A stretch of 32,000 nt of DNA from Psychrobacter sp. DM4 (GCF_051307035.1 NZ_CP195536.1:270001-302000), one strand, 5' to 3'. Positions 1-22,557 are shown, numbered from the stretch's first letter. Translations and numbers: made by a program. The notes: generated by a model not told the origin, from the sequence alone.

Positions 1-1
1 C

Positions 2-406
2 GATGGCTACTTTGCGCGTAAGCTCAATGTTATGTCCGCTTTTGGGCGTTTTTTGGATCCCGTCGCTGATAAGCTCATGGTTGCGGCAGCACTTATAATA
101 TTGGTGCAATGGCATCCCAACATTATCATGGCGATAGCCGCTATTGTCATTATCTCGCGTGAGATTGCGGTATCGGCATTGCGTGAGTGGATGGCGGAGC
201 TAGGTAACAGCACCAGCGTTGCCGTCTCTTATGTCGGCAAACTAAAAACGACATTCCAAATGGTCGCGATTACGGTATTGCTGCTGAACTGGGAGTCACT
301 TGAAACCATCGGTTATGTACTGATGATGGCAGCCGTGGTACTGACCTTGTGGTCGATGATGATTTACCTCAAAGCCGCTTGGCCTTATTTGAAGCAGAGC
401 GGGTAA
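2..406 (+). CDS. pgsA: CDP-diacylglycerol--glycerol-3-phosphate 3-phosphatidyltransferase, 5'-truncated by the window edge
   Basis: The frame is open from nt 2 and reads DGYFARKLNVMSAFGRFLDPVADK, the CDP-alcohol phosphatidyltransferase motif D-G-x2-A-R...G-x3-D-x3-D. Downstream, SALREWMAELG..SVAVS..GKLKTT.QM closely resembles E. coli PgsA as I recall it. Confidence 0.9.
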   Translation, partial: DGYFARKLNVMSAFGRFLDPVADKLMVAAALIILVQWHPNIIMAIAAIVIISREIAVSALREWMAELGNSTSVAVSYVGKLKTTFQMVAITVLLLNWESLETIGYVLMMAAVVLTLWSMMIYLKAAWPYLKQSG

Positions 407-438
407 GATTCAAAAAGATATCTAAAGTTACCATCAAT

Positions 439-471
439 AAAAAGCCAGTCGCATATTGCCACTGGCTTTTT
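439..471. terminator. Bidirectional rho-independent terminator between the convergent pgsA and GSP26-like genes
   Basis: Hairpin gccagtcgca / tgccactggc at 444-466 with one C.C mismatch and a tat loop. It is preceded by an A-run (439-443) and followed by a T-run (467-471). Confidence 0.6.
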
Positions 472-497
472 ATTGATGGTATTTAGCTCTCAAAGTA

Positions 498-992
498 CTA
501 TAGTTCTATTGAGAAATTTTCACCTAAGCTTTTTTCAATAGCCGTATCTGTTACTGCTGCGGCTGCCATTTTAGCAGCGCTAGCGATAGCATTACCATTG
601 GCCCAATATTCAGCGCCATGCGGGACGACTTTGATTAGCTGAACCTCTGAATCATCAATGCCCTTTTTGAAGTAGGCGTTGTACATGACTGACCACAGCT
701 CCTCAAGCTTTTCTCTATCTTCGACCAGTTCTGCCTTACCTGTAATAGACAGGTAGTTTTTGTCGTCCTGACTAACATAAGCCAAATTCACCTGTGGATT
801 TTTTTCGATGTTAGCAATCGTCTCAGACGGCTTATGGCCGATGAACCAAATTTCTTTGGCACCAATGCTTGTCTCAGTCGTATTCATCGGGCAAGAATGC
901 AGATGATCCTCATGAGTACGCGTGGTCATCATCGTATATTTAATGTCATTTACCATGACCTGAATTTTATCCATCTGCTCTTGTTTACTCAT
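498..992 (-). CDS. General stress protein 26-like / pyridoxamine 5'-phosphate oxidase-fold family protein (copy 1)
   Basis: 164-aa ORF. The pattern MMTT...CPM...EIWFIG....NPQV.L.Y.....NYLS..G.AELV.D..KLEELW...Y...F.KG.DD..V.LIKV.P..AEYW matches my memory of the GSP26/PNPOx-like family. It is a paralog of 1240..1734. Confidence 0.7.
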   Translation of the reverse strand: MSKQEQMDKIQVMVNDIKYTMMTTRTHEDHLHSCPMNTTETSIGAKEIWFIGHKPSETIANIEKNPQVNLAYVSQDDKNYLSITGKAELVEDREKLEELWSVMYNAYFKKGIDDSEVQLIKVVPHGAEYWANGNAIASAAKMAAAAVTDTAIEKSLGENFSIEL

Positions 993-1181
993 AATAGAAT
1001 TCCTTTTAATTTATATGATTATTTATTGATATAGCGATATCTTTTAGAAGATATCTCCCGATATTGAAACAGCTACTAACCATGAATATAGCGAAATAGG
1101 CGAATACAACGCTACAGCTAGTGTGTAATACGCTATGAAGATTTGTAAACTCTATATCTCATATGGAATATTTTAAACATA

Positions 1182-1215
1182 AAAAAACGTCAATAAGAGC
1201 TCTCTTATTGACGTT
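1182..1215 (-). terminator. Rho-independent terminator downstream of GSP26-like copy 2
   Basis: Perfect 13-bp inverted repeat acgtcaataagag / ctcttattgacgt (1188-1200 / 1203-1215). On the minus-strand transcript the hairpin is followed by a 7-nt U-run (complement of A 1182-1188). Confidence 0.75.
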
Positions 1216-1239
1216 TAAAATGAATTTAGAACTCTTTAT

Positions 1240-1734
1240 TTATAACGAGATATTAAATTGCTCACCCATATCTTCAGCAGTTTTACCATCTTGTAAGGCA
1301 GCAGATACCATCTTAAACATATTCACAGTAGAGCTACCGCTTATCCAGCACTCAACGCCATGCGGTACAACTTTGATCAATTGCACGTTTTCATCTTCTT
1401 TACCGTGTTCAAACCACGCATTATAAACAGGTGACCAAAGCTCTTCTAGCTTAGCTTTGTCCGTTGGCAATTCAGCGTTGGCGCTAACTGAGACATAGTT
1501 TTTTTCGTCTTGAGTAGCATAGGATAATCCAATTTTTGGATTGTCTTGGATGTCTTTGACTACATCTGAGGACTTATCCCCAATGAACCAGATCTCTTTG
1601 CCACCGATACTGCTTTCGCTAGTGGTCATCGGCCAAGCATGGACATCGCCCTTGCTGTTTATAGTACTCATCATGGCAAACTTAACGTCTTTAATAACAT
1701 CTTGTACTTTATCGATATTCTCTTGCTTACTCAT
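1240..1734 (-). CDS. General stress protein 26-like / PNPOx-fold family protein (copy 2)
   Basis: 164-aa ORF, the same length as copy 1 and roughly half identical by eye (MSKQE..DK.Q....D.K..MM.T...........PM.T.E.SIG.KEIWFIG.K.S........NP...L.Y..QD.KNY.S......L.....KLEELWS..YNA.F..G..D..VQLIKVVPHG.E.W). Confidence 0.7.
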   Translation of the reverse strand: MSKQENIDKVQDVIKDVKFAMMSTINSKGDVHAWPMTTSESSIGGKEIWFIGDKSSDVVKDIQDNPKIGLSYATQDEKNYVSVSANAELPTDKAKLEELWSPVYNAWFEHGKEDENVQLIKVVPHGVECWISGSSTVNMFKMVSAALQDGKTAEDMGEQFNISL

Positions 1735-1923
1735 AAAACATCCTTTTTATATTGTTTATTTTAGTGTTAGTTTTATCTTTTCATTTAACTGCCTGTAGCA
1801 TAACGATAATGGTGGCTAAAGTTATATAGGCTGCCAGTAATACGATGTGAGCGTTTGTAAGCTATATAACGGTTAGGTAAAAATATGACAAGCTTGATGA
1901 TTATCAAATTATACGGCTTTTAC

Positions 1924-1952
1924 CTGATTATTACGGGTCTTCTTGTTATAAT
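1924..1952 (+). promoter_or_regulatory. Candidate sigma-70 promoter for purL with an extended -10
   Basis: tgtTATAAT at 1944-1952 (TGn extended -10). The -35 is weak (ctgatt, 1924-1929) at 17-nt spacing. It lies about 67 nt upstream of the purL ATG. Prediction from sequence only. Confidence 0.3.
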
Positions 1953-2018
1953 GCGCAGACCCTCTACTTTGTATAGCAGCGCGTCTGCTATGGCCTATAT
2001 TTTAGGAAACCTGCCTTT

Positions 2019-5000
2019 ATGATGACTATCGCCGGACAGCCATTCTTGACCGACTTTCAAACCCAGCAACTCATCACCCAATTTGCACAAAAGACTGAGC
2101 TACATGTTACTCAAATAAATACGCAACAAGTATACGTGCTATCGCGTGATCTAAACGCTGATGAGCGTAAAAAAGCGCTAGATCTACTGGGTGCAAAAAA
2201 CGAGACGTCCCTCGCTACTACTAAAGATAAGCAAATTCAAGTCATCGTTGGTCCACGTTTTGGCACGATTTCGCCATGGGCGAGTAAAGCGACCGATATC
2301 TTTAATAATTGTGAGCTTGAGATTCACCGCGTTGAGCGCGTTATCGTTTATACATTAACAATTGAGGGTGAAGCAGGCGAAAAACTACCAGTAGACGCTG
2401 AGCAATTATTGTTTGATCGCATGACGCAAAGCTTGGTTTATGATTTGAGTGAAGTGAGCAAGCTATTTGATGACGAACCGCCAGCATCGCTCAATCATAT
2501 CGATGTGATCGGACAAGGTCAGTCGGCGCTAGAATCTGCCAATACGACATTTGGTTTTGCGTTATCAAGTGAAGACATTGATTATCTGATGAATGCGTAT
2601 GTCAATGAGCTTAAGCGCAATCCAACTGACGTTGAGCTGATGATGTTTGCACAGGCGAACTCAGAGCATTGCCGTCATAAGATATTTAATGCCCAATGGA
2701 CAGTCGATGGCGCAGTACAGCCGAAATCACTGTTCCAAATGATTAAGAATACTTATCAGTCGAATCCACAAGGTATCTTGTCGGCTTATAAAGACAACGC
2801 CGCAGTGATGGCTGGGGCAGAAGGGATGCGTTTTTACCCGATTCCTACCGATCCTCAAGATCCTAATTCAGCGCATCCGTATGGCTTCCATCAAGAAGCT
2901 ATCGATATCTTAATGAAGGTCGAAACCCATAACCATCCAACCGCGATTGCTCCTTATGCGGGTGCAGCGACAGGTGCTGGTGGTGAAATTCGTGATGAAG
3001 GCGCGACTGGTCGTGGCGGTAAGCCAAAAGCTGGCTTGACGGGCTTTCACGTATCACACTTGCATATCCCAGAGCTCGCTGAGAAATGGGAGCAGTCAGG
3101 TCAGCTAAGTACTCAGGCTTATGGCACGCCCGATCGTATGGCAACGAGCCTTGAGATTATGACACAAGCACCACTCGGTTCAGCTAACTTCTCTAACGAG
3201 TTTGGGCGTCCAAACTTATGCGGTTATTTCCGTAGTTTCCAATTGGATACCTCAGCGGCAAAAGACGGCAGCGAGATGCGCGGCTATCATAAGCCCATCA
3301 TGCTGGCAGGGGGGTACGGCAATATCAAACGCAATCTCATTGAAAAAAATCCCATTCGCCAGGGTGATTTACTGATCGTCCTTGGTGGCCCTGCGATGCA
3401 AATCGGTCTTGGCGGCGGTGCGGCGTCTTCAGTCGATAGCGGCTCACTTGATGAAGGCTTAGATTTTGCCTCAGTTCAGCGTGACAATGCTGAGATGGAG
3501 CGTCGTTGCCAAGAAGTCCTCGATCGCTGCTGGGCCTTAGCTGGTAATGAAGAGTCGGGTAGTGATGTCGATGCGAGCAATAATGGCAAAGACGGCAACC
3601 CTATCGTGTCATTACATGATGTGGGCGCTGGTGGTATCTCTAATGCAATGCCTGAACTGGTCAATGACCACGAAATGGGCGCGATACTCAACCTGCGTAA
3701 AATTCCGTCGTTAGAAGCTGGCATGTCGCCAATGGCCATCTGGTCAAACGAAGCACAAGAGCGTTATGTCCTCGCGATTCGTCCAGAAAGCGAAGCCCAA
3801 TTCGACGCAATCTGTGCGCGTGAGCGCTGCCCGTATGCCATCTTGGGTACAGCTACGGATGTGCGTCAATTGGTGGTTAACGATTCGCTGCTAGATGAGC
3901 AACCTGTCGATATGCCGATGCAAGTATTGCTCGGTGGCACGCCAAAGATGAAGCGTAGCTTTGAGCGTACCGAGAGCACGTCACCAGCATTAGAGCTTGG
4001 TGATGTGAATTTAGCTGAGTCTATTACTGATGTGCTGCGTCACCCAACCGTCGCTAGTAAGTCATTTTTGATTAGCATTGGTGATCGCTCTATCACGGGC
4101 ATGGTCGTGCGTGATCAGTATGTGGGTCGCTATCAAGTGCCCGTGGCAGATTGCGCGGTGACAGCGTCAGGATTGATCGCGCTTGATGGTCAGGTGATGA
4201 GCGGCGAGGCCATGAGTATCGGTGAGCGTACACCAGTGGCGCTTATCAGTCCAAAAGCTTCTGCGCGTTTAGCAGTGGGTGAAGCAATTACCAACATCGC
4301 TGGCGCGCGTATTGCTCAGTTGTCTGATATCACGATGTCAGCGAACTGGATGGCAGCATGCGGTGATGATGCAGAAGATGCGGCACTATTCGATGCGGTA
4401 CATGCCGTCGGTGAAGAGCTGTGCCCAGCACTCGGTATCGCTATCCCAGTCGGTAAAGACTCGCTATCGATGCGTGCTAACTGGACAGACAGCAGTGAAG
4501 AAGGTGATACGGATAAATCAGTCGTGTCACCAATGAGCTTGGTAATTACCGCGTTTGCTCCTGTGGTTGATGTGGCAAAAACGCTAACGCCTGAGCTAAT
4601 CAATGGCGATAGCGCGTTCTACCGTATTGATTTGTCTAAAGGTAAATTGCGTTTAGGCGGCTCAATCCTTGCGCAAACGCTTAGCCAATTGAGTAACGAT
4701 TGCCCAGATCTAGCACAGCCAAGCGACTTGATCGACTTCTTTAACTTTATCCAAGCGGGTAACGCGCAAGGCGTCATCAGCGCTTATCACGATATCGGTG
4801 ATGGTGGTCTGCTTGCAACTATCGCAGAGATGCAGTTCACTAGCCGTCAGGGTATCAAGCTTTCATTAAATGACGATAACTTACTCGGTCAGCTGTTCAG
4901 TGAGGAGCTGGGTGCAGTTATCCAAGTATTGCCAGAAAACGTCGCTGCTCTAATGCAATTGGCAGAAGAGTTTAACGTTGCTGATATGCTGAGTCTCGTT

Positions 5001-6044
5001 GGTCAAAGCTCTGAAGAAGACAGCTTACTTATCCAAACGCCTTTGCACATGGGTGATGATACCTTACGCTTTAGCCGTACTGAGTTACAGCAAGCGTGGA
5101 CGCAGGTTAGCTATCAGATCGCGCGCCGCCGTGATAATCCAGCGTGCGTACAGCAAGAGTATGACCTAATCAGTGATGACAGTCACAAAGGCCTAATCGC
5201 TGCGCCAAACTTTGATCTCAATCAAAAGGTTGAAGCACCTTATGTAAGCAGCCGTGCTGATGCTAATAACAGCCAACCAAGAGTCGCCATCCTCCGCGAG
5301 CAAGGCGTCAACGGTCAGACAGAAATGGCAGCAGGCTTTACCCAAGCGGGTTTTGAAGCGGTCGATGTACACATGAGCGATCTACTGAGTGGTCGTATCA
5401 ATCTACGTGACTTCGACGGTCTGGTCGCGTGTGGTGGCTTTAGTTATGGTGATGTATTGGGCGCAGGCTCTGGCTGGGCGAACTCTATCCTGTTCCATGA
5501 CGAGTTACGCATGCAGTTTGTGCGCTTCTTTGCCCGTCCTGATACCTTCTCACTAGGCGTCTGTAATGGCTGTCAGATGATGGCTCAGTTAAAAGACCTC
5601 ATCCCAGGTGCAGATAATTTCCCACGCTTCATCGCCAACCAATCGGCTCGTTTTGAGGCGCGTACGGTCAATGTCAAAGTCGAGCGTACCAAGTCCATCC
5701 TATTCAAAGGCATGCAAGATAGTATCTTACCGATTGCTGTCGCCCATGGGGAAGGCTACGCCACGCTTAACGAGACCGAAATCGATGGCATGTCCAAACA
5801 CGGTCAGCTAGCGATGCGTTATGTCGATAGCCAAGGTCATCCTACTGAGACTTATCCGCTCAATCCAAACGGCTCGCTCGGCGGTGTCACGGGTCTGTGT
5901 AGTACTGATGGTCGCGTCACTATCATGATGCCGCATCCTGAGCGTAACTTAAAAGCCTATAACCACAGCTGGAAACCAGAAGCGTGGGATGAGGACGGTG
6001 CGTGGATGCGTATGTTCCGTAATGCGCGGGCTTGGTTGCGTTAA
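2019..6044 (+). CDS. purL: Phosphoribosylformylglycinamidine synthase (large single-chain FGAM synthase)
   Basis: 1341-aa ORF with an AGGAA RBS 10 nt upstream. It has FGAM synthetase-type blocks and a C-terminal glutaminase domain with the nucleophile motif GVCNGCQMM and MPHPER. Confidence 0.97.
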   Translation: MMTIAGQPFLTDFQTQQLITQFAQKTELHVTQINTQQVYVLSRDLNADERKKALDLLGAKNETSLATTKDKQIQVIVGPRFGTISPWASKATDIFNNCELEIHRVERVIVYTLTIEGEAGEKLPVDAEQLLFDRMTQSLVYDLSEVSKLFDDEPPASLNHIDVIGQGQSALESANTTFGFALSSEDIDYLMNAYVNELKRNPTDVELMMFAQANSEHCRHKIFNAQWTVDGAVQPKSLFQMIKNTYQSNPQGILSAYKDNAAVMAGAEGMRFYPIPTDPQDPNSAHPYGFHQEAIDILMKVETHNHPTAIAPYAGAATGAGGEIRDEGATGRGGKPKAGLTGFHVSHLHIPELAEKWEQSGQLSTQAYGTPDRMATSLEIMTQAPLGSANFSNEFGRPNLCGYFRSFQLDTSAAKDGSEMRGYHKPIMLAGGYGNIKRNLIEKNPIRQGDLLIVLGGPAMQIGLGGGAASSVDSGSLDEGLDFASVQRDNAEMERRCQEVLDRCWALAGNEESGSDVDASNNGKDGNPIVSLHDVGAGGISNAMPELVNDHEMGAILNLRKIPSLEAGMSPMAIWSNEAQERYVLAIRPESEAQFDAICARERCPYAILGTATDVRQLVVNDSLLDEQPVDMPMQVLLGGTPKMKRSFERTESTSPALELGDVNLAESITDVLRHPTVASKSFLISIGDRSITGMVVRDQYVGRYQVPVADCAVTASGLIALDGQVMSGEAMSIGERTPVALISPKASARLAVGEAITNIAGARIAQLSDITMSANWMAACGDDAEDAALFDAVHAVGEELCPALGIAIPVGKDSLSMRANWTDSSEEGDTDKSVVSPMSLVITAFAPVVDVAKTLTPELINGDSAFYRIDLSKGKLRLGGSILAQTLSQLSNDCPDLAQPSDLIDFFNFIQAGNAQGVISAYHDIGDGGLLATIAEMQFTSRQGIKLSLNDDNLLGQLFSEELGAVIQVLPENVAALMQLAEEFNVADMLSLVGQSSEEDSLLIQTPLHMGDDTLRFSRTELQQAWTQVSYQIARRRDNPACVQQEYDLISDDSHKGLIAAPNFDLNQKVEAPYVSSRADANNSQPRVAILREQGVNGQTEMAAGFTQAGFEAVDVHMSDLLSGRINLRDFDGLVACGGFSYGDVLGAGSGWANSILFHDELRMQFVRFFARPDTFSLGVCNGCQMMAQLKDLIPGADNFPRFIANQSARFEARTVNVKVERTKSILFKGMQDSILPIAVAHGEGYATLNETEIDGMSKHGQLAMRYVDSQGHPTETYPLNPNGSLGGVTGLCSTDGRVTIMMPHPERNLKAYNHSWKPEAWDEDGAWMRMFRNARAWLR

Positions 6045-6177
6045 GATATAAGGTAATTTGTTCTAAGGTATAGTTTTAGATAGCTGTTTTTTAAAATAAG
6101 AAGGTGGGCTTAGGCTCACCTTTTTTGTGTTTGGGATTTGGGTTTTTGAGAAATAGGGGAGCTAATCCCGCCTTTCG
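5967..6177 (+). repeat. Direct repeat copy 1: purL 3' end (last 26 codons), terminator and about 50 nt beyond
   Basis: The first 59 nt are identical to 7023-7081. The rest of the coding part differs only by three synonymous third-position changes and the stop codon. The non-coding tail is homologous with indels, ending near cccgccttt (6168-6177). Confidence 0.9.
6099..6127 (+). terminator. Rho-independent terminator of purL
   Basis: Stem ggtgggc / ggctcacc (one G.U pair) with loop ttag, followed by tttttt (6121-6126). Confidence 0.7.
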
Positions 6178-6184
6178 CTTGTAT

Positions 6185-6282
6185 CTGCCAGTCTGGGCGA
6201 GGCGCTGGCTACGGTTTGGGTCGTCGCTTGCTCCGCGTCGACACCCCAAAACCTACCCATCGCAACTCGCCCAAACCAGCAG
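6185..6282. repeat. GC-rich imperfect palindrome (two arms of about 42 nt, 12-nt centre) of unknown function
   Basis: By hand alignment, 6185-6226 pairs with 6239-6282. About 32 of 42 opposed positions are Watson-Crick, with a 2-nt bulge at 6260-6261. Five of the ten mismatches are C.A, which would be G.U on a minus-strand fold. It is much more GC-rich than the surrounding intergenic DNA. Confidence 0.6.
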
Positions 6283-6360
6283 GATACCGCTACAGTCGGT
6301 GCTAAACCGCGCCTCAAGACTACTGTTTATAGTTGGTTTGAAATTTGCTAAAAAATACTA

Positions 6361-6390
6361 TTGGAAATATACGTCAATGACGTATATACT
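6361..6390 (+). promoter_or_regulatory. Candidate higBA promoter with a palindromic operator in the spacer
   Basis: -35 TTGGAA (6361-6366), 18-nt spacer, -10 TATACT (6385-6390). A perfect palindrome atatacgtca-a-tgacgtatat (6367-6387) fills the spacer. AAGGA RBS at 6405-6409. Confidence 0.5.
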
Positions 6391-6416
6391 TGAGAAATAA
6401 CGATAAAGGATTATAG

Positions 6417-6749
6417 ATGCTACATTTTATAGAAACCCCGTTATTTACCAAACAAGTGCTTAAATTGTTGGATGATGATAACTATAAAGAGCTGCAAGCG
6501 GATTTGATAAATAATCCAGACCAAGGGGCTTTAATTCAAGGTACAGGTGGTGTCAGAAAAACTAGATGGGCGCTGAATCAAGGTAAAAGTGGTGGCGTAC
6601 GTATCATCTATTATTTTGTTGATAGTCACGGCATATTTTTTATGTTGCTTGCCTATCCAAAAAATAAAAAGGTCAGTTTATCGAGTCAAGAAAAATCTAG
6701 CTTGTATAAACTAACTCAACAAATCAAAGAGGTATATAATCATGAGTAA
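6417..6749 (+). CDS. higB: Type II toxin, RelE/ParE superfamily, HigB-2-like
   Basis: 110 aa. The block GTGGVRKTRWALNQGKSGGVRIIYYF...FFMLLAYPKN matches my memory of Vibrio HigB-2 (GTGGLRKIR....GKRGGSRIIYYF...FYLLTIYGKN). The toxin-first order and 8-nt overlap (ATGAGTAA) with the next gene are typical of higBA. Confidence 0.85.
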   Translation: MLHFIETPLFTKQVLKLLDDDNYKELQADLINNPDQGALIQGTGGVRKTRWALNQGKSGGVRIIYYFVDSHGIFFMLLAYPKNKKVSLSSQEKSSLYKLTQQIKEVYNHE

Positions 6750-7023
6750 TGAATTTTATGATGATCTATCAACGTCATTGAATCAAGCATTAGCAATTGC
6801 CAAAGGGGACGCCCAACCTAGCCGACAGTTTAGTCATGAAATGCCCGATATTAAATTAATTCGTACTAAGACAGGGTTATCGCAACAGCAGTTTGCCGAT
6901 AAGCTAAATATCAGCTCTCGTACTTTACAGAACTGGGAACAAGGGACTAGAAATCCAACAGGGGCGACGATTACGCTTATGCGCTTGTTGGATAAGCAGC
7001 CTGATTTGATTGGTTTGGCTTAA
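6742..7023 (+). CDS. higA: Type II antitoxin, XRE-family HTH, HigA-2-like
   Basis: 93 aa. The C-terminal HTH block [39 protein letters not shown] resembles HigA-2/XRE antitoxins (..TLENWEQGR..P...A..L.RL). It is translationally coupled to higB. Its stop codon TAA (7021-7023) abuts the start of repeat copy 2. Confidence 0.85.
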
Positions 7024-7100
7024 GCTGGAAACCAGAAGCGTGGGATGAGGACGGTGCGTGGATGCGTATGTTCCGTAATGCTCGTGCTTGGTTGCGATAG
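7023..7100 (+). pseudogene. Displaced orphan 3' fragment of purL (last 25 codons plus stop)
   Basis: It translates to [25 protein letters not shown], identical in protein to the purL C-terminus. There is no upstream purL body. It differs from 5967-6044 only by gcg>gct, cgg>cgt, cgt>cga and taa>tag. Confidence 0.9.
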
Positions 7101-7130
7101 ACTGGTTTGATTTGGTTGTTTTAGATAATA

Positions 7131-7160
7131 AAAAAGGTGGGCTTCGGCTCACCTTTTTTG
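7131..7160 (+). terminator. Second copy of the purL-type terminator
   Basis: aaaaaaggtgggc-ttcg-gctcacc followed by tttttt. It has a UUCG-type tetraloop. Confidence 0.65.
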
Positions 7161-7402
7161 TGTTTGGAATTTGCTTTTATTTGGGAGCATTTCCCGCCTT
7201 TTTATTTCAAGCGTGAACTTTGTCCATTACGACAGAAAAAATTTTTCTTAACAATTAACGTGTTTTCCATTACAGAAGAAACATTCGCATAATGAGAAGT
7301 AATTGCTGACTTTATGCGTTTAGTATATTATAAATAATCAAGGCAACTACTTATTACCCTATAGAATTGCTGGATTAGCAAGTTCTAGCTTGTATAAGGA
7401 CT

Positions 7403-7618
7403 ATGGCAATGAACATTGTAAACAAAGCACTTAATATATTTGCAAACCCGAAAGGTTGTAAAAAAGATATGAATGAGCGTCTTATCGTTGACGAATATGG
7501 TAACTTACGTGTGAACTATGAGAACAAGAGTGTGCAAGAGGGAATGACAAAGCAGATCCAAGCATTGAAAAGAATGGAAGCCAGAAAATTATCTGAAACC
7601 GAGGGTGAAGCTGGTTAG
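7403..7618 (+). CDS. Hypothetical small soluble protein (71 aa), first gene of an AT-rich two-gene cassette
   Basis: An AAGGA RBS lies just upstream (a second in-frame ATG at 7409 has better spacing). A possible promoter is TTGCTG (7303-7308), 17 nt, TATTAT (7326-7331). The protein is hydrophilic and I recognise no family. Its stop is 6 nt before the next ORF. Confidence 0.45.
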   Translation: MAMNIVNKALNIFANPKGCKKDMNERLIVDEYGNLRVNYENKSVQEGMTKQIQALKRMEARKLSETEGEAG

Positions 7619-7624
7619 TGTACT

Positions 7625-8401
7625 ATGGGCCTATTAGCAGTAGTATATATTTTAATTTTAGGATATATGGAGGCGTCGTCTAAGCCTACTAAAAAAAACG
7701 TACTTAGACGCAGTGCTGGGTGGGAAGCATATGTTTATTTAGCTTCTAATGGCGTAAGCGTTATTATAGGTGGGATGTGCATCTATTTTTTCGGTTACCT
7801 AGTCTCGTGGATAATAAATTGGATTATAGAAACTATTTCATTATGTGTTTTTCACTCTGCTTTCAGCACTCTAGCATGGTCAAACGAAAAGATATTTAGT
7901 ATCAAACTTTTTAATGAACATCCTATTTATTTTCATGCATTGATAGTCGCTTTTTTTGCATGGATCGTTTGTGAGGGACAAAAGGGGCCCAATAATTCAG
8001 AAGATGATTATAAATCACTTATGGGCCTAGATGGTGTTCTAAATATAGTTATCCACGCTATGCAGAAAGACTCTTTTGTCAAGGTTTCTCTAAAATCTCG
8101 AAAGGTATACATTGGTTTTGTAGTAAGCGAACAATTTAATAATGTTGATTTAGAAAATATAATGATTATTCCATTTTTAAGTGGATATAGAGATAAAGAT
8201 TTACTTACATTGATCACTAATTGCAATTACATGCCTATGTACGAAAAAAACAAATTTTTAGATGATAATGATAAAGTAAACTCTGAAAAAATTGATGACT
8301 TGAAGATGCTTATTAGAGTTGATGAGATTGAAACTATATCCCTTTTTGATCCTCTCTACTATGAAGATTTTGAAACCTATGATGCCTCTAGACTAGTATA
8401 G
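7625..8401 (+). CDS. Hypothetical polytopic membrane protein (258 aa) with a cytoplasmic C-terminal domain
   Basis: Three or four hydrophobic segments: GLLAVVYILILGY, VSVIIGGMCIYFFGYLVSWIINWII, ISLCVFHSAFSTLAW and IYFHALIVAFFAWIV. They are followed by a soluble region of about 140 aa containing an Sm-like strand pattern (FVKVSLKSRKVYIGFVV...DLENIMIIP) and a terminal MLIRVDEIETISLFD. The sequence is very AT-rich (23 G+C in the 100 nt 8101-8200 by hand count). Confidence 0.6.
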   Translation: MGLLAVVYILILGYMEASSKPTKKNVLRRSAGWEAYVYLASNGVSVIIGGMCIYFFGYLVSWIINWIIETISLCVFHSAFSTLAWSNEKIFSIKLFNEHPIYFHALIVAFFAWIVCEGQKGPNNSEDDYKSLMGLDGVLNIVIHAMQKDSFVKVSLKSRKVYIGFVVSEQFNNVDLENIMIIPFLSGYRDKDLLTLITNCNYMPMYEKNKFLDDNDKVNSEKIDDLKMLIRVDEIETISLFDPLYYEDFETYDASRLV

Positions 8402-8474
8402 TTGACGCTTACTTCTGACTCAACGCAGGTCAATAAAAGAATTTACGTTGTTTTATTTCAGTATTTTCTTCCAA

Positions 8475-11208: not shown

Positions 11209-12396
11209 CTATTTTATAAAGTACCACCCGTGAACTAGCTTTAATGAGTCTCTAATAACATGATTCAACAATCTGTCCTCTTTATAAAGTTTGATATAAA
11301 AGTTTTTGTCAACACTATGTCTACGTCTTGAGGAAGCTAATTTTTCACTAATATATATACTTATTTCTGATTCACAGTAACGGCAATGGTTTAATAGAAA
11401 GTCGTTTTTTTCTGATAGGAATATCTCGCCATGACCAAGTTTAGCCTGCCATTGATAACTATTTAATTGCTCTATAATACTTTGATACTCAAAGTTAGCG
11501 AGCTTTGATAGAGGTAAACTATTTAACAAGCAAGACGAAGAGTCATGCACGTTCGGCAAATAAAAATCTATACCTTGAATCAAATTAGTTAATTTCCTAC
11601 ACTTTGGACATTTGGTAGAGCCAATATTAGGATAGGCAAATATAGGTAATTTTCTACTTGGAAACCACTGGATATCACCAGCTAGTAAGTGTTTGATAAA
11701 ATCTGTTAGCTCAAAAGTCAGTACATCATCATTGTTAGAATTTGAACCTTTAAGCGCTTGCCAAAGTATAGTTCTAGGACTCAACAACATTGATAAAGGC
11801 TTGATACCTGAAACTATAAACTCTTTTGTCACTCTATCGTGCAGAGGAGCCGAGTTCATCAGCTGTAAATCAAAAAGAGGTAACCATCTCTTCTGTTGAA
11901 ACTCTAAAATTTTTAGTTTTCTTTTTCCAACATTTTGAAGCCATACTGCTCTTATAGGTAAAGATTTAAATAGCCTAGAATGATACTTTGCATGTCTTTC
12001 TCTAGTTCTACTAAATGTTTGGGATGACCACTGTATTTCTACAGGGATGGCAGCTTTATCGTTGTAAATTATTAAATCAGAAATCCAGACATTCGGTTTC
12101 TTATCATCTGATCGCCTTTCAAATTCAACTTGCCATCCAACTTCTAAGGCTGCTCGGGCACATAAGTACTTAGCATACATATGCTCGCTAGACTCGTCGG
12201 TAACAGGACAATCACCACGTTTCTTATGAGCAAAAAACTGAGTGCCGTAATGACTGGTTTTAGGTAATGCTTGAGATTCACAGCAAGACATAGAGATATC
12301 CATCTGCTTATAATTCTTCTTCAAATCATGCCATTCATCTGTAGAAAAAGAGAAACTAAAGATTTCTTGGCTATCTTTCATACATGAAAACGGCAT
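11209..12396 (-). CDS. CoiA-like (PD-(D/E)xK nuclease-type) protein with a Cys-rich C-terminal extension; orphan AT-rich gene
   Basis: 395 aa. The N-terminal half follows the CoiA-family pattern as I recall it: CC....FFAHKKRGDC....ESSEH..AK........GW.VEFE......ISDLII.....AIPVEIQWS.......RERHAKY........AVWL. The C-terminal half has two CxxC pairs (CPKCRK, CRYCES). G+C is about 33% by hand count of 11581-11700, against about 57% in a purL sample. Confidence 0.6.
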   Translation of the reverse strand: MPFSCMKDSQEIFSFSFSTDEWHDLKKNYKQMDISMSCCESQALPKTSHYGTQFFAHKKRGDCPVTDESSEHMYAKYLCARAALEVGWQVEFERRSDDKKPNVWISDLIIYNDKAAIPVEIQWSSQTFSRTRERHAKYHSRLFKSLPIRAVWLQNVGKRKLKILEFQQKRWLPLFDLQLMNSAPLHDRVTKEFIVSGIKPLSMLLSPRTILWQALKGSNSNNDDVLTFELTDFIKHLLAGDIQWFPSRKLPIFAYPNIGSTKCPKCRKLTNLIQGIDFYLPNVHDSSSCLLNSLPLSKLANFEYQSIIEQLNSYQWQAKLGHGEIFLSEKNDFLLNHCRYCESEISIYISEKLASSRRRHSVDKNFYIKLYKEDRLLNHVIRDSLKLVHGWYFIK

Positions 12397-21543: not shown

Positions 21544-22557
21544 ATGTCTATTGTCAATAAAGAGCCAAATCATCCTTGGATATCTACAGATGTAGCGGAC
21601 GCATTGGAGCTAGATGGCGAGCTACAAGAGCTGTTCATACCTGTTAATCGCTGGCTGGGTATACTCAAGGTACGCAATCACTCAGAGCATACTTTGAGGG
21701 CTTATTTCGCTGGGGTCAATCAGTTGGCGCTGTTTTTGCGGGGTAAAGGCTTGACATGGACGCGCTGTGATAAGCGTCAATTGGCTCAGCATATCTCTCA
21801 GCGTCTCGATGAGGACAATCTGGCGCTTGCTAGTGTACAGCAAGAGCTGTCAGCAATTCGGCATTTTTATGGCTGGCTTATCGAACAGGAGCTTGCGCGT
21901 ATCAATCCAACGACGGGTTATCAGCTCAAACGTAGTCCACGTCCATTGCCGTCCATCGCTGATATCGATATGCTGACGCAACTGCTGGATCAGCCTGCGC
22001 CTGATACGCCAGAGCAGGCGCGACTATGGCTACGCGACAAGGCGATGTTTGAGTTACTCTACAGTAGTGGTCTGCGCGTAGGTGAGTTAGTCGCGCTCGA
22101 TGTAACGGATATAGATCTATCTGATTTGCGGGTACGAGTGACAGGTAAAGGCAATAAGACCCGCCTCGTACCGATAGGGATGAAAGCGCGCGACGCCATC
22201 AAGCGCTACTTACCGCATCGTAATCTATGGGTAGAGCAAGTCGATAGCGCTTTGTTTATTAGCGAGAAGCTTGGGACTAGGCTCTCAACGCGCGCCGTCC
22301 AGCAGCGTCTAAAAGTTACTGCCAAGCGCGCAGGCATTGCGCAAAATATGTATCCGCATCTATTGCGCCATTGCTTTGCCTCGCACATGCTCTCAGGGAG
22401 TGGCGATCTGCGCGCTGTGCAAGAGATGCTTGGGCATAGTGATATCAGCACCACGCAAATCTATACCCATGTTGATTTTGCCAAGCTCACTCAAGTCTAT
22501 GATCGCGCTCATCCACGCGCGACGCATACAAGAAATGACAATGAGCCACCTTTGTAA
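21544..22557 (+). CDS. xerC: Tyrosine recombinase XerC
   Basis: The catalytic pattern is present: GLRVGEL (R), HLLRHCFASH (HxxR) and TTQIYTHV (Y). The dapF-xerC synteny also fits. Confidence 0.9.
   Translation: MSIVNKEPNHPWISTDVADALELDGELQELFIPVNRWLGILKVRNHSEHTLRAYFAGVNQLALFLRGKGLTWTRCDKRQLAQHISQRLDEDNLALASVQQELSAIRHFYGWLIEQELARINPTTGYQLKRSPRPLPSIADIDMLTQLLDQPAPDTPEQARLWLRDKAMFELLYSSGLRVGELVALDVTDIDLSDLRVRVTGKGNKTRLVPIGMKARDAIKRYLPHRNLWVEQVDSALFISEKLGTRLSTRAVQQRLKVTAKRAGIAQNMYPHLLRHCFASHMLSGSGDLRAVQEMLGHSDISTTQIYTHVDFAKLTQVYDRAHPRATHTRNDNEPPL

Follow-up and report, generated by a model that had tools for sequence, protein, structure and literature searches.

The HigB-2/HigA-2 toxin-antitoxin module of Vibrio cholerae is an integron cassette with an attC site. 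The Moraxellaceae include Acinetobacter, the classic model for homology-facilitated illegitimate recombination. In naturally transformable bacteria this process combines one homologous anchor with one illegitimate joint (PMC3240628). In Neisseria, minimal mobile elements are cassettes that lie between conserved genes and pass from strain to strain through transformation with homologous recombination (PMC3082526, PMC1538595). Here we describe the purL 3' end of Psychrobacter sp. DM4, where a second, diverged copy of the gene end lies behind a higBA operon. The stretch analysed, referred to as the window, comprises 32,000 nt of one strand, and positions are counted from its first base. The locus is a HigB-2/HigA-2-type operon in a variable region between purL and a conserved block with a 63-aa gene and pdxJ. 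We favour, with a probability of roughly 0.55, an old scar of island type at the 3' end of purL that was reshaped by homologous exchange, copy conversion and a small deletion. By a slight preference, the flanking repeat is read as a recombination scar in a gene-swapping hotspot and not as the attachment site of a self-mobile higBA element.

The purL gene encodes FGAM synthase (1341 aa; 2019-6044, plus strand; open reading frame with five purL Pfam domains). A repeat search detected a 77-nt direct repeat (5967-6043 versus 7023-7099, 96% identity), and the final 78 nt of purL (5967-6044) are repeated at 7023-7100. A preliminary description of this DNA had noted the 78-nt repeat, an identical head of 59 nt and synonymous-only differences in the tail, and all three are borne out by alignment. 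The coding part shows 0/59 differences in the head and 4/19 in the tail (Fisher p = 0.003); these four (GCG/GCT, CGG/CGT, CGT/CGA and TAA/TAG) are all third-position changes, synonymous or stop-for-stop. By direct reading, the first base of the second copy is the final A of the higA stop codon TAA. Past the purL stop codons, gapped alignment follows the homology to 6177 in copy 1 and to 7201 in copy 2. The diverged but homologous continuation with a terminator, also described before, counts 88 matches against 13 mismatches and 32 gap columns, which is 87% identity over aligned bases and 66% over all columns. The spacer between stop codon and terminator measures 53 nt in copy 1 versus 30 nt in copy 2, and both non-coding parts contain the terminator hairpin (GGTGGGCTT(A/C)GGCTCACC with a T-run) and a cccgccttt block. 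Copy 1 (5967-6177, plus strand; repeat search and gapped alignment) comprises purL from -78 to the stop codon, the spacer, terminator 1 and the cccgcc foot. Terminator 1 (6098-6132, plus strand; terminator scan and direct reading) has a 12-pair stem, the loop TTAG and a T-run. The synonymous-only differences and the spacer indels support the earlier view that the copies are different purL alleles and not a fresh in-situ copy.

Related loci were gathered in three ways: the 258-aa and 69-aa proteins encoded downstream were looked up by exact sequence, metagenomes were scanned with HigB, and relatives of HigA and HigB were looked up. The resulting set comprises about 40 metagenomic, mostly short contigs, which are given here by L numbers. 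In a scan of genome contigs, the PurL C-terminus was 96% identical to that of Psychrobacter cibarius W1 and Psychrobacter sp. Ps2; distant purL genes dominated, and these were the only two Psychrobacter genomes among the matches listed. Searching proteins with the PurL C-terminus yielded nothing but fragments and identified no close relatives of the window lineage, and exact-sequence look-ups of HigA, HigB and PurL of the window retrieved no record.

Among the relatives, the site downstream of purL exists in an empty form and in at least four occupied layouts. The empty sites that the preliminary description had led one to expect are present in L002 and L004, where purL is followed by one terminator and then by the same 69-aa and 258-aa genes; carriage of the cassette is polymorphic as predicted, with empty and occupied contigs among the relatives. 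L110/L111 and L113 have higBA after purL and no second purL copy on the contig. In Form A (window and L009) the 78-nt second copy abuts the higA stop codon. Form B (L001, L003, L006, L007, L091-L094, L012, L114-L119 and L121-L124) has higBA, a 62-nt filler and about 50 nt of degenerate purL end, its higBA being about 78-85% identical to that of the window. Form C (L112, L144 and L145) carries a 186-nt second copy after 12 nt and a decayed copy of a palindrome foot. The variable slot is flanked by purL on one side and by the 63-aa/GATase/pdxJ block on the other, with gene sets that differ by strain, and the left junctions of higBA lie at five different positions across loci. Cassettes outside purL (L096, L097, L098 and Moraxella L104-L109) have no flanking gene-end or target duplication. 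As a separate observation, L012 harbours a 132-aa gene (11693-12091; no NCBIfam match) after terminator 2, directly behind GTGTTT, at a position equal to the left junction of Form B higBA.

That the higA stop codon and the repeat meet exactly had been noted before, and the junction is indeed exact. It is probably a secondary feature, because the nearest relatives, L144/L145, have a longer second copy behind filler. These two are 96.7% identical to window 6154-7022 and have the same left junction and the same 'PEAW' purL head, and the HigA of L144 shows 99% identity to that of the window. Behind the higA stop codon, L144 continues with TGGCTTAACAGC, the decayed foot GCGCTATTTTCTACTTTTCGC and then purL' from -186, so that in L144/L145 186 nt of purL are separated from higA by 31 nt of filler (12 nt plus the foot fragment). 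In a global alignment the window equals L144 with a single clean 139-bp gap, which opens directly behind the stop codon and reaches to purL' -79. A deletion reaching further left would destroy the antitoxin, which may explain the endpoint at the stop codon.

The older joint lies at purL -186. The second copies of L112 and L144 begin at the same TCAATCC, and the -186 boundary is common to L112, L144, L146 (Psychrobacter sp. FBL11) and L147, with homologous upstream sequence in L146 and L147. When the Form B filler was first aligned locally to purL, the match was not significant; a semi-global alignment to purL -186 to -125 reached z = 3.7-4.1, with 0-5/500 shuffles as good. The right joint is at -186 in L112, L144, L146 and Form B and at -78 in the window, and the left junctions occupy five positions. 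Judged by L112, L144 and L146, the start of the ancestral repeat unit was probably near 5859 (purL -186). Three independent duplications (-78, about -50 and -186) were considered and dropped, since L144 and the semi-global alignment link them.

Psychrobacter sp. FBL11 separates the duplication from the operon. Its purL remnant lies 6 kb from purL behind genes for an SNF2/DEAD helicase, tdh and kbl, a block spanning L146 1205-7011. It has decayed, reading 'SWKPEA*IDNGA*' with two TGG codons changed in frame to TAG, and higBA is located outside the repeats, on the far side of the remnant, of its terminator and of a variant of the palindrome. This arrangement argues that the duplication predates, and is independent of, the presence of higBA between the copies, and the earlier coupling of the duplication to higBA has to be given up. 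Overall, higBA occupies two positions relative to the purL-end duplication. In L111, tdh-kbl is found on the other side of higBA and of a 62-aa flank marker, which implies a rearrangement of this block.

Between the repeats lies a GC-rich structured palindrome (6160-6307, minus strand; Rfam, fold, covariation and orthologous copies). Its foot is the cccgcc block: the cccgccttt block which ends the repeat overlaps the palindrome, and the second repeat copy retains the foot only. The block is present in both copies, as stated before, but it is not a mere repeat end. On the minus strand the palindrome resembles Rfam Flavo-1 (RF01705), with matching outer helices and the conserved UUUAGC..CCGA..AGCGG and AGCG.AA.GCGGGA; it differs in falling short of the gathering score (34.3 bits versus 42; E = 8e-6), in a 74-nt apical insertion and in its host, a gammaproteobacterium and not one of the Bacteroidota, where it is single-copy in the window. 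The function of Flavo-1 is not known, and its Flavobacterium hits occur in either orientation (PMC9723704). The fold has z = -2.5. Orthologues come from seven distinct loci, and two apical variants differ by compensatory changes at 4/45 predicted pairs, with the outer helices conserved. Always downstream of a purL-type terminator, the palindrome follows the second purL copy in Form B loci and precedes higBA in L111, where the order is purL-terminator-palindrome-higBA and where it is present without a second purL copy on the contig. By its distribution the palindrome is a resident element of the region downstream of purL and not cassette cargo, and the 845 bp between the repeats can no longer be regarded as one incoming unit, given that the palindrome stands elsewhere after the second copy or without a purL duplication on the contig. 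Two other identities were dropped for the palindrome: an integron attC (no core sites) and, together with a small GC hairpin, a repeated REP family (the copies found are orthologues at this locus only).

These comparisons bear on the Campbell-type explanation, in which a circle carrying purL from -78 to the stop codon, terminator, palindrome and higBA crossed over, by a single homologous event, into an empty purL site of this lineage. Such an event would create the -78 junction directly, with the higA-stop/AGCTGG junction as the joint of circle closure. Both parental haplotypes exist (L111 with higBA and no second copy on the contig; L002 with the downstream genes and no higBA), copies 1 and 2 differ as alleles do, and the crossover could have fallen within the 59 identical nt of the head. 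However, L144/L145 represent nearly the same haplotype with a longer second copy and filler, from which -78 arises by deletion without a new illegitimate event; the tail and spacer of copy 2 resemble the L144 second copy and not the empty-site allele; the recipient purL must already have switched allele within its last 19 nt; and the palindrome is resident, not cargo. Given L144 and FBL11, direct Campbell integration of a higBA circle is less parsimonious, and we consider it unlikely. The related proposal that the incoming copy completed purL and displaced the native end is not readable from the locus.

Copy 2 is a mosaic of three parts. The head of copy 2 (7023-7081, plus strand; allele comparison) is identical to copy 1 over 59 nt, including lineage-specific GCG/GAG codons (the 'PEAW' variant), and other Psychrobacter purL alleles differ from it at 3-10/59 positions. 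The GAAGCG codon of the window purL also occurs in the decayed FBL11 remnant. Tail and spacer (7082-7126, plus strand; alignment) belong to another allele than copy 1 (4/19 differences plus indels) and resemble the L144 second copy most closely. Terminator 2 opens a 1.3-kb module (7127-8450, plus strand; sliding identity, whole-region BLAST and exact-protein look-ups), which contains, all on the plus strand, the terminator 2 hairpin (about 7131-7158), a foot-only hairpin (7182-7196), the 69-aa gene (7409-7618) and the 258-aa gene (7625-8401; phrog_3630, E = 3.5e-48). The module proteins gave no Pfam, NCBIfam or PADLOC match. From about 7127-7151 to 8450 the window is 100% identical to L001, L002, L005, L009 and L092-L095, while purL in contigs sharing the identical module is only 80-90% identical to that of the window (about 80-82% in L001 and L002). 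Because it is 100% identical in backgrounds with diverged purL, the module suggests very recent spread across Psychrobacter lineages, with the conserved terminator as its apparent left exchange point. On these alignments, copy 2 reads as a mosaic of a resident-allele head, an L144-like tail and spacer, and the spread module from terminator 2 onwards. In two contigs, transposases of insertion sequences (DDE_Tnp_1, Transposase_mut) disrupt or replace the 258-aa gene (L091 10482-11240; L095 890-2089).

An in-situ tandem duplication from purL -78 to the higA stop codon, after which foreign DNA homologously replaced the distal copy, its left crossover falling inside copy 2, would likewise give an identical head, and divergence from position 60 is expected if incoming DNA pairs only from -78; the downstream module is clearly imported. 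Against it, an unstable duplication must be fixed by a second event, the 100% identity of the module begins at the terminator and not at position 60, and the L144-like tail and spacer as well as the -186 form of L144/L145 are left unexplained. We hold this course of events to be quite improbable.

The copies also exchange sequence with each other and between lineages. In L009, a Form-B-type higB switches to the window type inside higA at about 6880, and identity to the window is then 100% beyond 9000. The codons differing between copies 1 and 2 are all synonymous in L112 (12/12) and in L144 (12/12), and because of this the second copies look like live alleles and not like drifting pseudogenes. 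A tail of the second-copy type occurs in the functional purL of L122, and tails identical to the first copy occur in the second copies of L114-L116, L119 and L124. This sharing of tails, together with GAAGCG in FBL11, is what conversion of one copy by the other and the replacement of alleles by incoming DNA would produce.

As to recombination machinery, the earlier finding of no integrase holds. There is none in or beside the locus, whose neighbours within about 7 kb on each side are housekeeping genes (PNPOx-like, pdxJ, amidase, MOSC and rsfS), and none in the related loci examined. The sole tyrosine recombinase gene in the window (21544-22557) is xerC-like, placed behind dapF as xerC is, 14.5 kb away. 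Across the entire window, an Acinetobacter-type dif pattern found 0 matches when up to 3 mismatches were allowed, and a dif/Xer site was dropped as a candidate for this reason. By reading, attC cores (RYYYAAC/GTTRRRY) are absent from 6160-6330 and from the cassette ends, and no IntI was found.

A more far-reaching explanation regards the purL terminator plus palindrome as attachment site for a hairpin-directed recombinase acting in trans, either Xer-like or a single-strand transposase of the IS200 type or the REP-associated tyrosine transposase (RAYT) type. Loading of such a landing pad, with higBA, the 69-aa/258-aa module, the 132-aa gene and helicase-tdh-kbl inserted repeatedly and leaving partial purL-end duplications, would constitute a new integrase-less route for toxin-antitoxin units spanning promoter to stop codon. 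In line with it, several different cargos directly follow the terminator T-run or adjoin hairpins (Form B higBA and the L012 132-aa gene stand directly after GTGTTT, and L113 after a small GC hairpin), higBA ends at its stop codon in all contexts, the palindrome shows covariation and, by eye, a RAYT-like fragment adjoins higBA in L096. The five left junctions, the non-purL sites without target duplication, the lack of a dif-like site of the Acinetobacter-type pattern in the window, hairpins that are not repeated families in the sequence searched and a housekeeping-type xerC as the only recombinase in the window all speak against it, and both the recombinase and the landing pad appear very unlikely to us. 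That the second copy is an assembly artefact, for which only the general risk of repeats for assemblers could be invoked, is hardly credible: the condition had been raised before, and L009, an independent metagenome contig from another sample and assembler, has the identical higA-stop/AGCTGG junction and the identical second copy, while the copies in the window differ in sequence and are each contiguous with unique flanks.

Under the favoured reading of an old, reshaped scar, the present locus would have arisen in six steps. First, judging from the shared junctions, an old insertion at the purL 3' end would have doubled some 186 nt of purL together with the terminator and the palindrome foot, giving a pseudo-3' end (copy 2) downstream of a slot for cargo. 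Behind this -186 junction may stand either a Campbell-type event or one illegitimate joint combined with a homologous anchor. Second, the cargo turned over, as seen in helicase-tdh-kbl in FBL11 and higBA in other lineages, also after the palindrome. Third, a homologous crossover inside higBA, between its two positions, would have joined 'purL-terminator-palindrome-higBA' to 'higBA-filler-foot-copy 2(-186)-terminator 2' and yielded the L144 type; crossovers inside higA are exemplified by L009. Fourth, the 139-bp difference seen in the alignment, which ends directly behind the higA stop codon on one side and at purL' -79 on the other, would be a deletion leading from the L144 type to the window type. 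Fifth, an exchange anchored on the conserved terminator would have imported the 1.3-kb module, for which the identity speaks. Sixth, conversion between copies 1 and 2 or replacement by incoming alleles would keep copy 2 live-looking. Direct repeats of roughly 200 bp would allow RecA-dependent loss or gain of the cassette.

Several points weigh against this scheme. The order of events is a parsimony argument built on contigs and not a dated phylogeny, and no genome was found that belongs to the window lineage and has an empty site or lacks the duplication; exact look-ups of PurL, HigB and HigA retrieved nothing. The 139-bp deletion has <=1 nt of microhomology, and for its left end to coincide with the stop codon, some luck is required besides selection that keeps the antitoxin intact. 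At the -186 joint FBL11 has 30 extra nt, and microhomology there (TCCGCT) is only a possibility. For the crossover inside higBA there is only a modest shift of the best match near 6800, and the natural competence of the host is an assumption.

The operon itself begins with a left edge at 6329-6416 (plus strand; direct reading and promoter scan), made up of 23 nt of unassigned sequence (TTGGTTTGAAATTTGCT...), an A-run, a promoter-like site and an operator-like inverted repeat. The promoter-like TTGGAA-18-TATACT (6361-6390) overlaps the inverted repeat TATACGTCAATGACGTATA (6370-6388), and homology among cassettes of different contexts starts about 35 nt upstream of this repeat. The toxin gene higB (6417-6749, plus strand, 110 aa) encodes a HigB-2-type protein of the RelE fold, which matches PF06296 at 30.2 bits (cutoff 27), the HigB-2 structures PDB 5JA8/5JA9 (E = 2e-19) and phrog_5869. 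The antitoxin gene higA (6742-7023, plus strand, 93 aa) encodes a HigA-2-type helix-turn-helix (HTH) protein matching HTH_3, the NadS family of NCBIfam (66.5 bits, cutoff 60) and PDB HigA-2 5JAA (E = 1.7e-9). It lies downstream of higB, the reversed gene order, with an 8-nt overlap. With a toxin of the RelE/HigB-2 fold and a downstream HTH antitoxin, the pair belongs to the HigB-2/HigA-2 kind of type II toxin-antitoxin system, and by homology higBA is predicted to be an ordinary representative. HigA would be expected to repress the promoter through the overlapping inverted repeat; terminator 1 would end purL and terminator 2 the higBA operon. The unit terminates at its own stop codon in every context compared. 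A plasmid DNA search with the cassette gave no match.

Short imperfect direct repeats of the cassette's own ends (GCTTAA..., TTGGTTTG) are visible in the window (6329-6351 versus 7008-7023; TTGGTTTG...GCTAA versus TTGGTTTGGCTTAA) and in L001 (8668-8692 and 9350-9369; GCTTAATTAGATCCAGAAAAAACA versus GCTTAATTGATCAAAAACA), although those of L001 may instead be old island sequence common with FBL11. Outside purL, the higBA copy of L096 sits between a rluB-like gene and scpB, upstream of what by eye is the C-terminal part of a REP-associated tyrosine transposase gene (6640-6830; WQRRFW...HSDYI...). In L104, of the Moraxella nonliquefaciens type, a 61%-identical higBA homologue ends a filamentous-prophage gene set (1-6700; Rep_trans, Coat_B and Zot), and behind it a 50-nt repeat containing a hairpin occurs twice, at a distance of 194 nt; L105-L109 have kept only remnants of the filamentous phage. 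An inovirus remnant was dropped as an explanation for the Psychrobacter cassettes: the homologue at a Moraxella prophage end exists, but the cassettes have no accompanying phage genes.

Elsewhere in the window, tandem PNPOx-like paralogues (164 aa each; 498-992 and 1240-1734, minus strand) precede purL; L002 has two as well, L001 and L091 one. A 395-aa open reading frame without Pfam or PHROG match (11209-12396, minus strand) lies between the amidase and MOSC genes, where L091 has hicAB plus an 82-aa gene and L001 nothing; this is a second variable slot.

A tidy duplication of a gene end round a small cassette can mislead; on the favoured reading, the one at purL is an old scar in a recombination hotspot and not the footprint of the present cassette. 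The locus offers a natural example of a chromosomal toxin-antitoxin pair without mobility genes changing its neighbours, by crossover inside the pair, by terminator-anchored exchange and by small deletions bounded by the antitoxin stop codon. Its empty, -186, -78 and decayed forms provide a testable system for asking whether addiction modules bias which recombinants survive. Nothing at the purL locus overturns current views; the mosaic is instructive, and its elements are of kinds already known.

Compared with the V. cholerae HigB-2/HigA-2 module (PDB 5JA8, 5JA9 and 5JAA), the Psychrobacter operon likewise has a RelE-fold toxin (PF06296) upstream of an HTH antitoxin, overlapping genes, an own promoter and an inverted-repeat operator. 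It differs in that it has neither attC nor IntI and spans promoter to stop codon only, its activity being predicted from homology. Integron cassettes and Xer-dependent elements (IMEX) do not match the locus, which has no attC/IntI and no dif-like site of the Acinetobacter type. With integrase islands at gene or tRNA 3' ends it has in common a direct repeat that takes in the target gene's 3' end, an intact gene on one side and a displaced pseudo-end on the other, empty sites in relatives and an older -186 junction common to several lineages. Of the features of such islands, the repeat with the gene 3' end and the empty sites are present and the integrase is absent, in every version of the purL locus examined, and the locus does not qualify as an integrase-borne island. 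In addition, the purL repeat reaches a length of about 320 nt and extends over the terminator, neither the cargo nor the left junction is constant, and the copies exchange sequence. To homology-facilitated illegitimate recombination the locus is similar in one novel joint beside homologous exchange, as at the foot/-186 joint; it differs in that the process at purL is only inferred and that microhomology at the joints is weak or doubtful. Minimal mobile elements of Neisseria differ in that partial duplication of a flanking gene is outside their definition, and competence of this Psychrobacter is assumed. Both have alternative gene sets between the same flanks, identical segments in diverged backgrounds and no mobility genes. 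The identical 1.3-kb module and the mosaic alleles are indirect evidence that would fit spread by transformation and homologous recombination, and the hallmark of a minimal-mobile-element hotspot, different gene sets between the same conserved flanks across strains, is found at purL.

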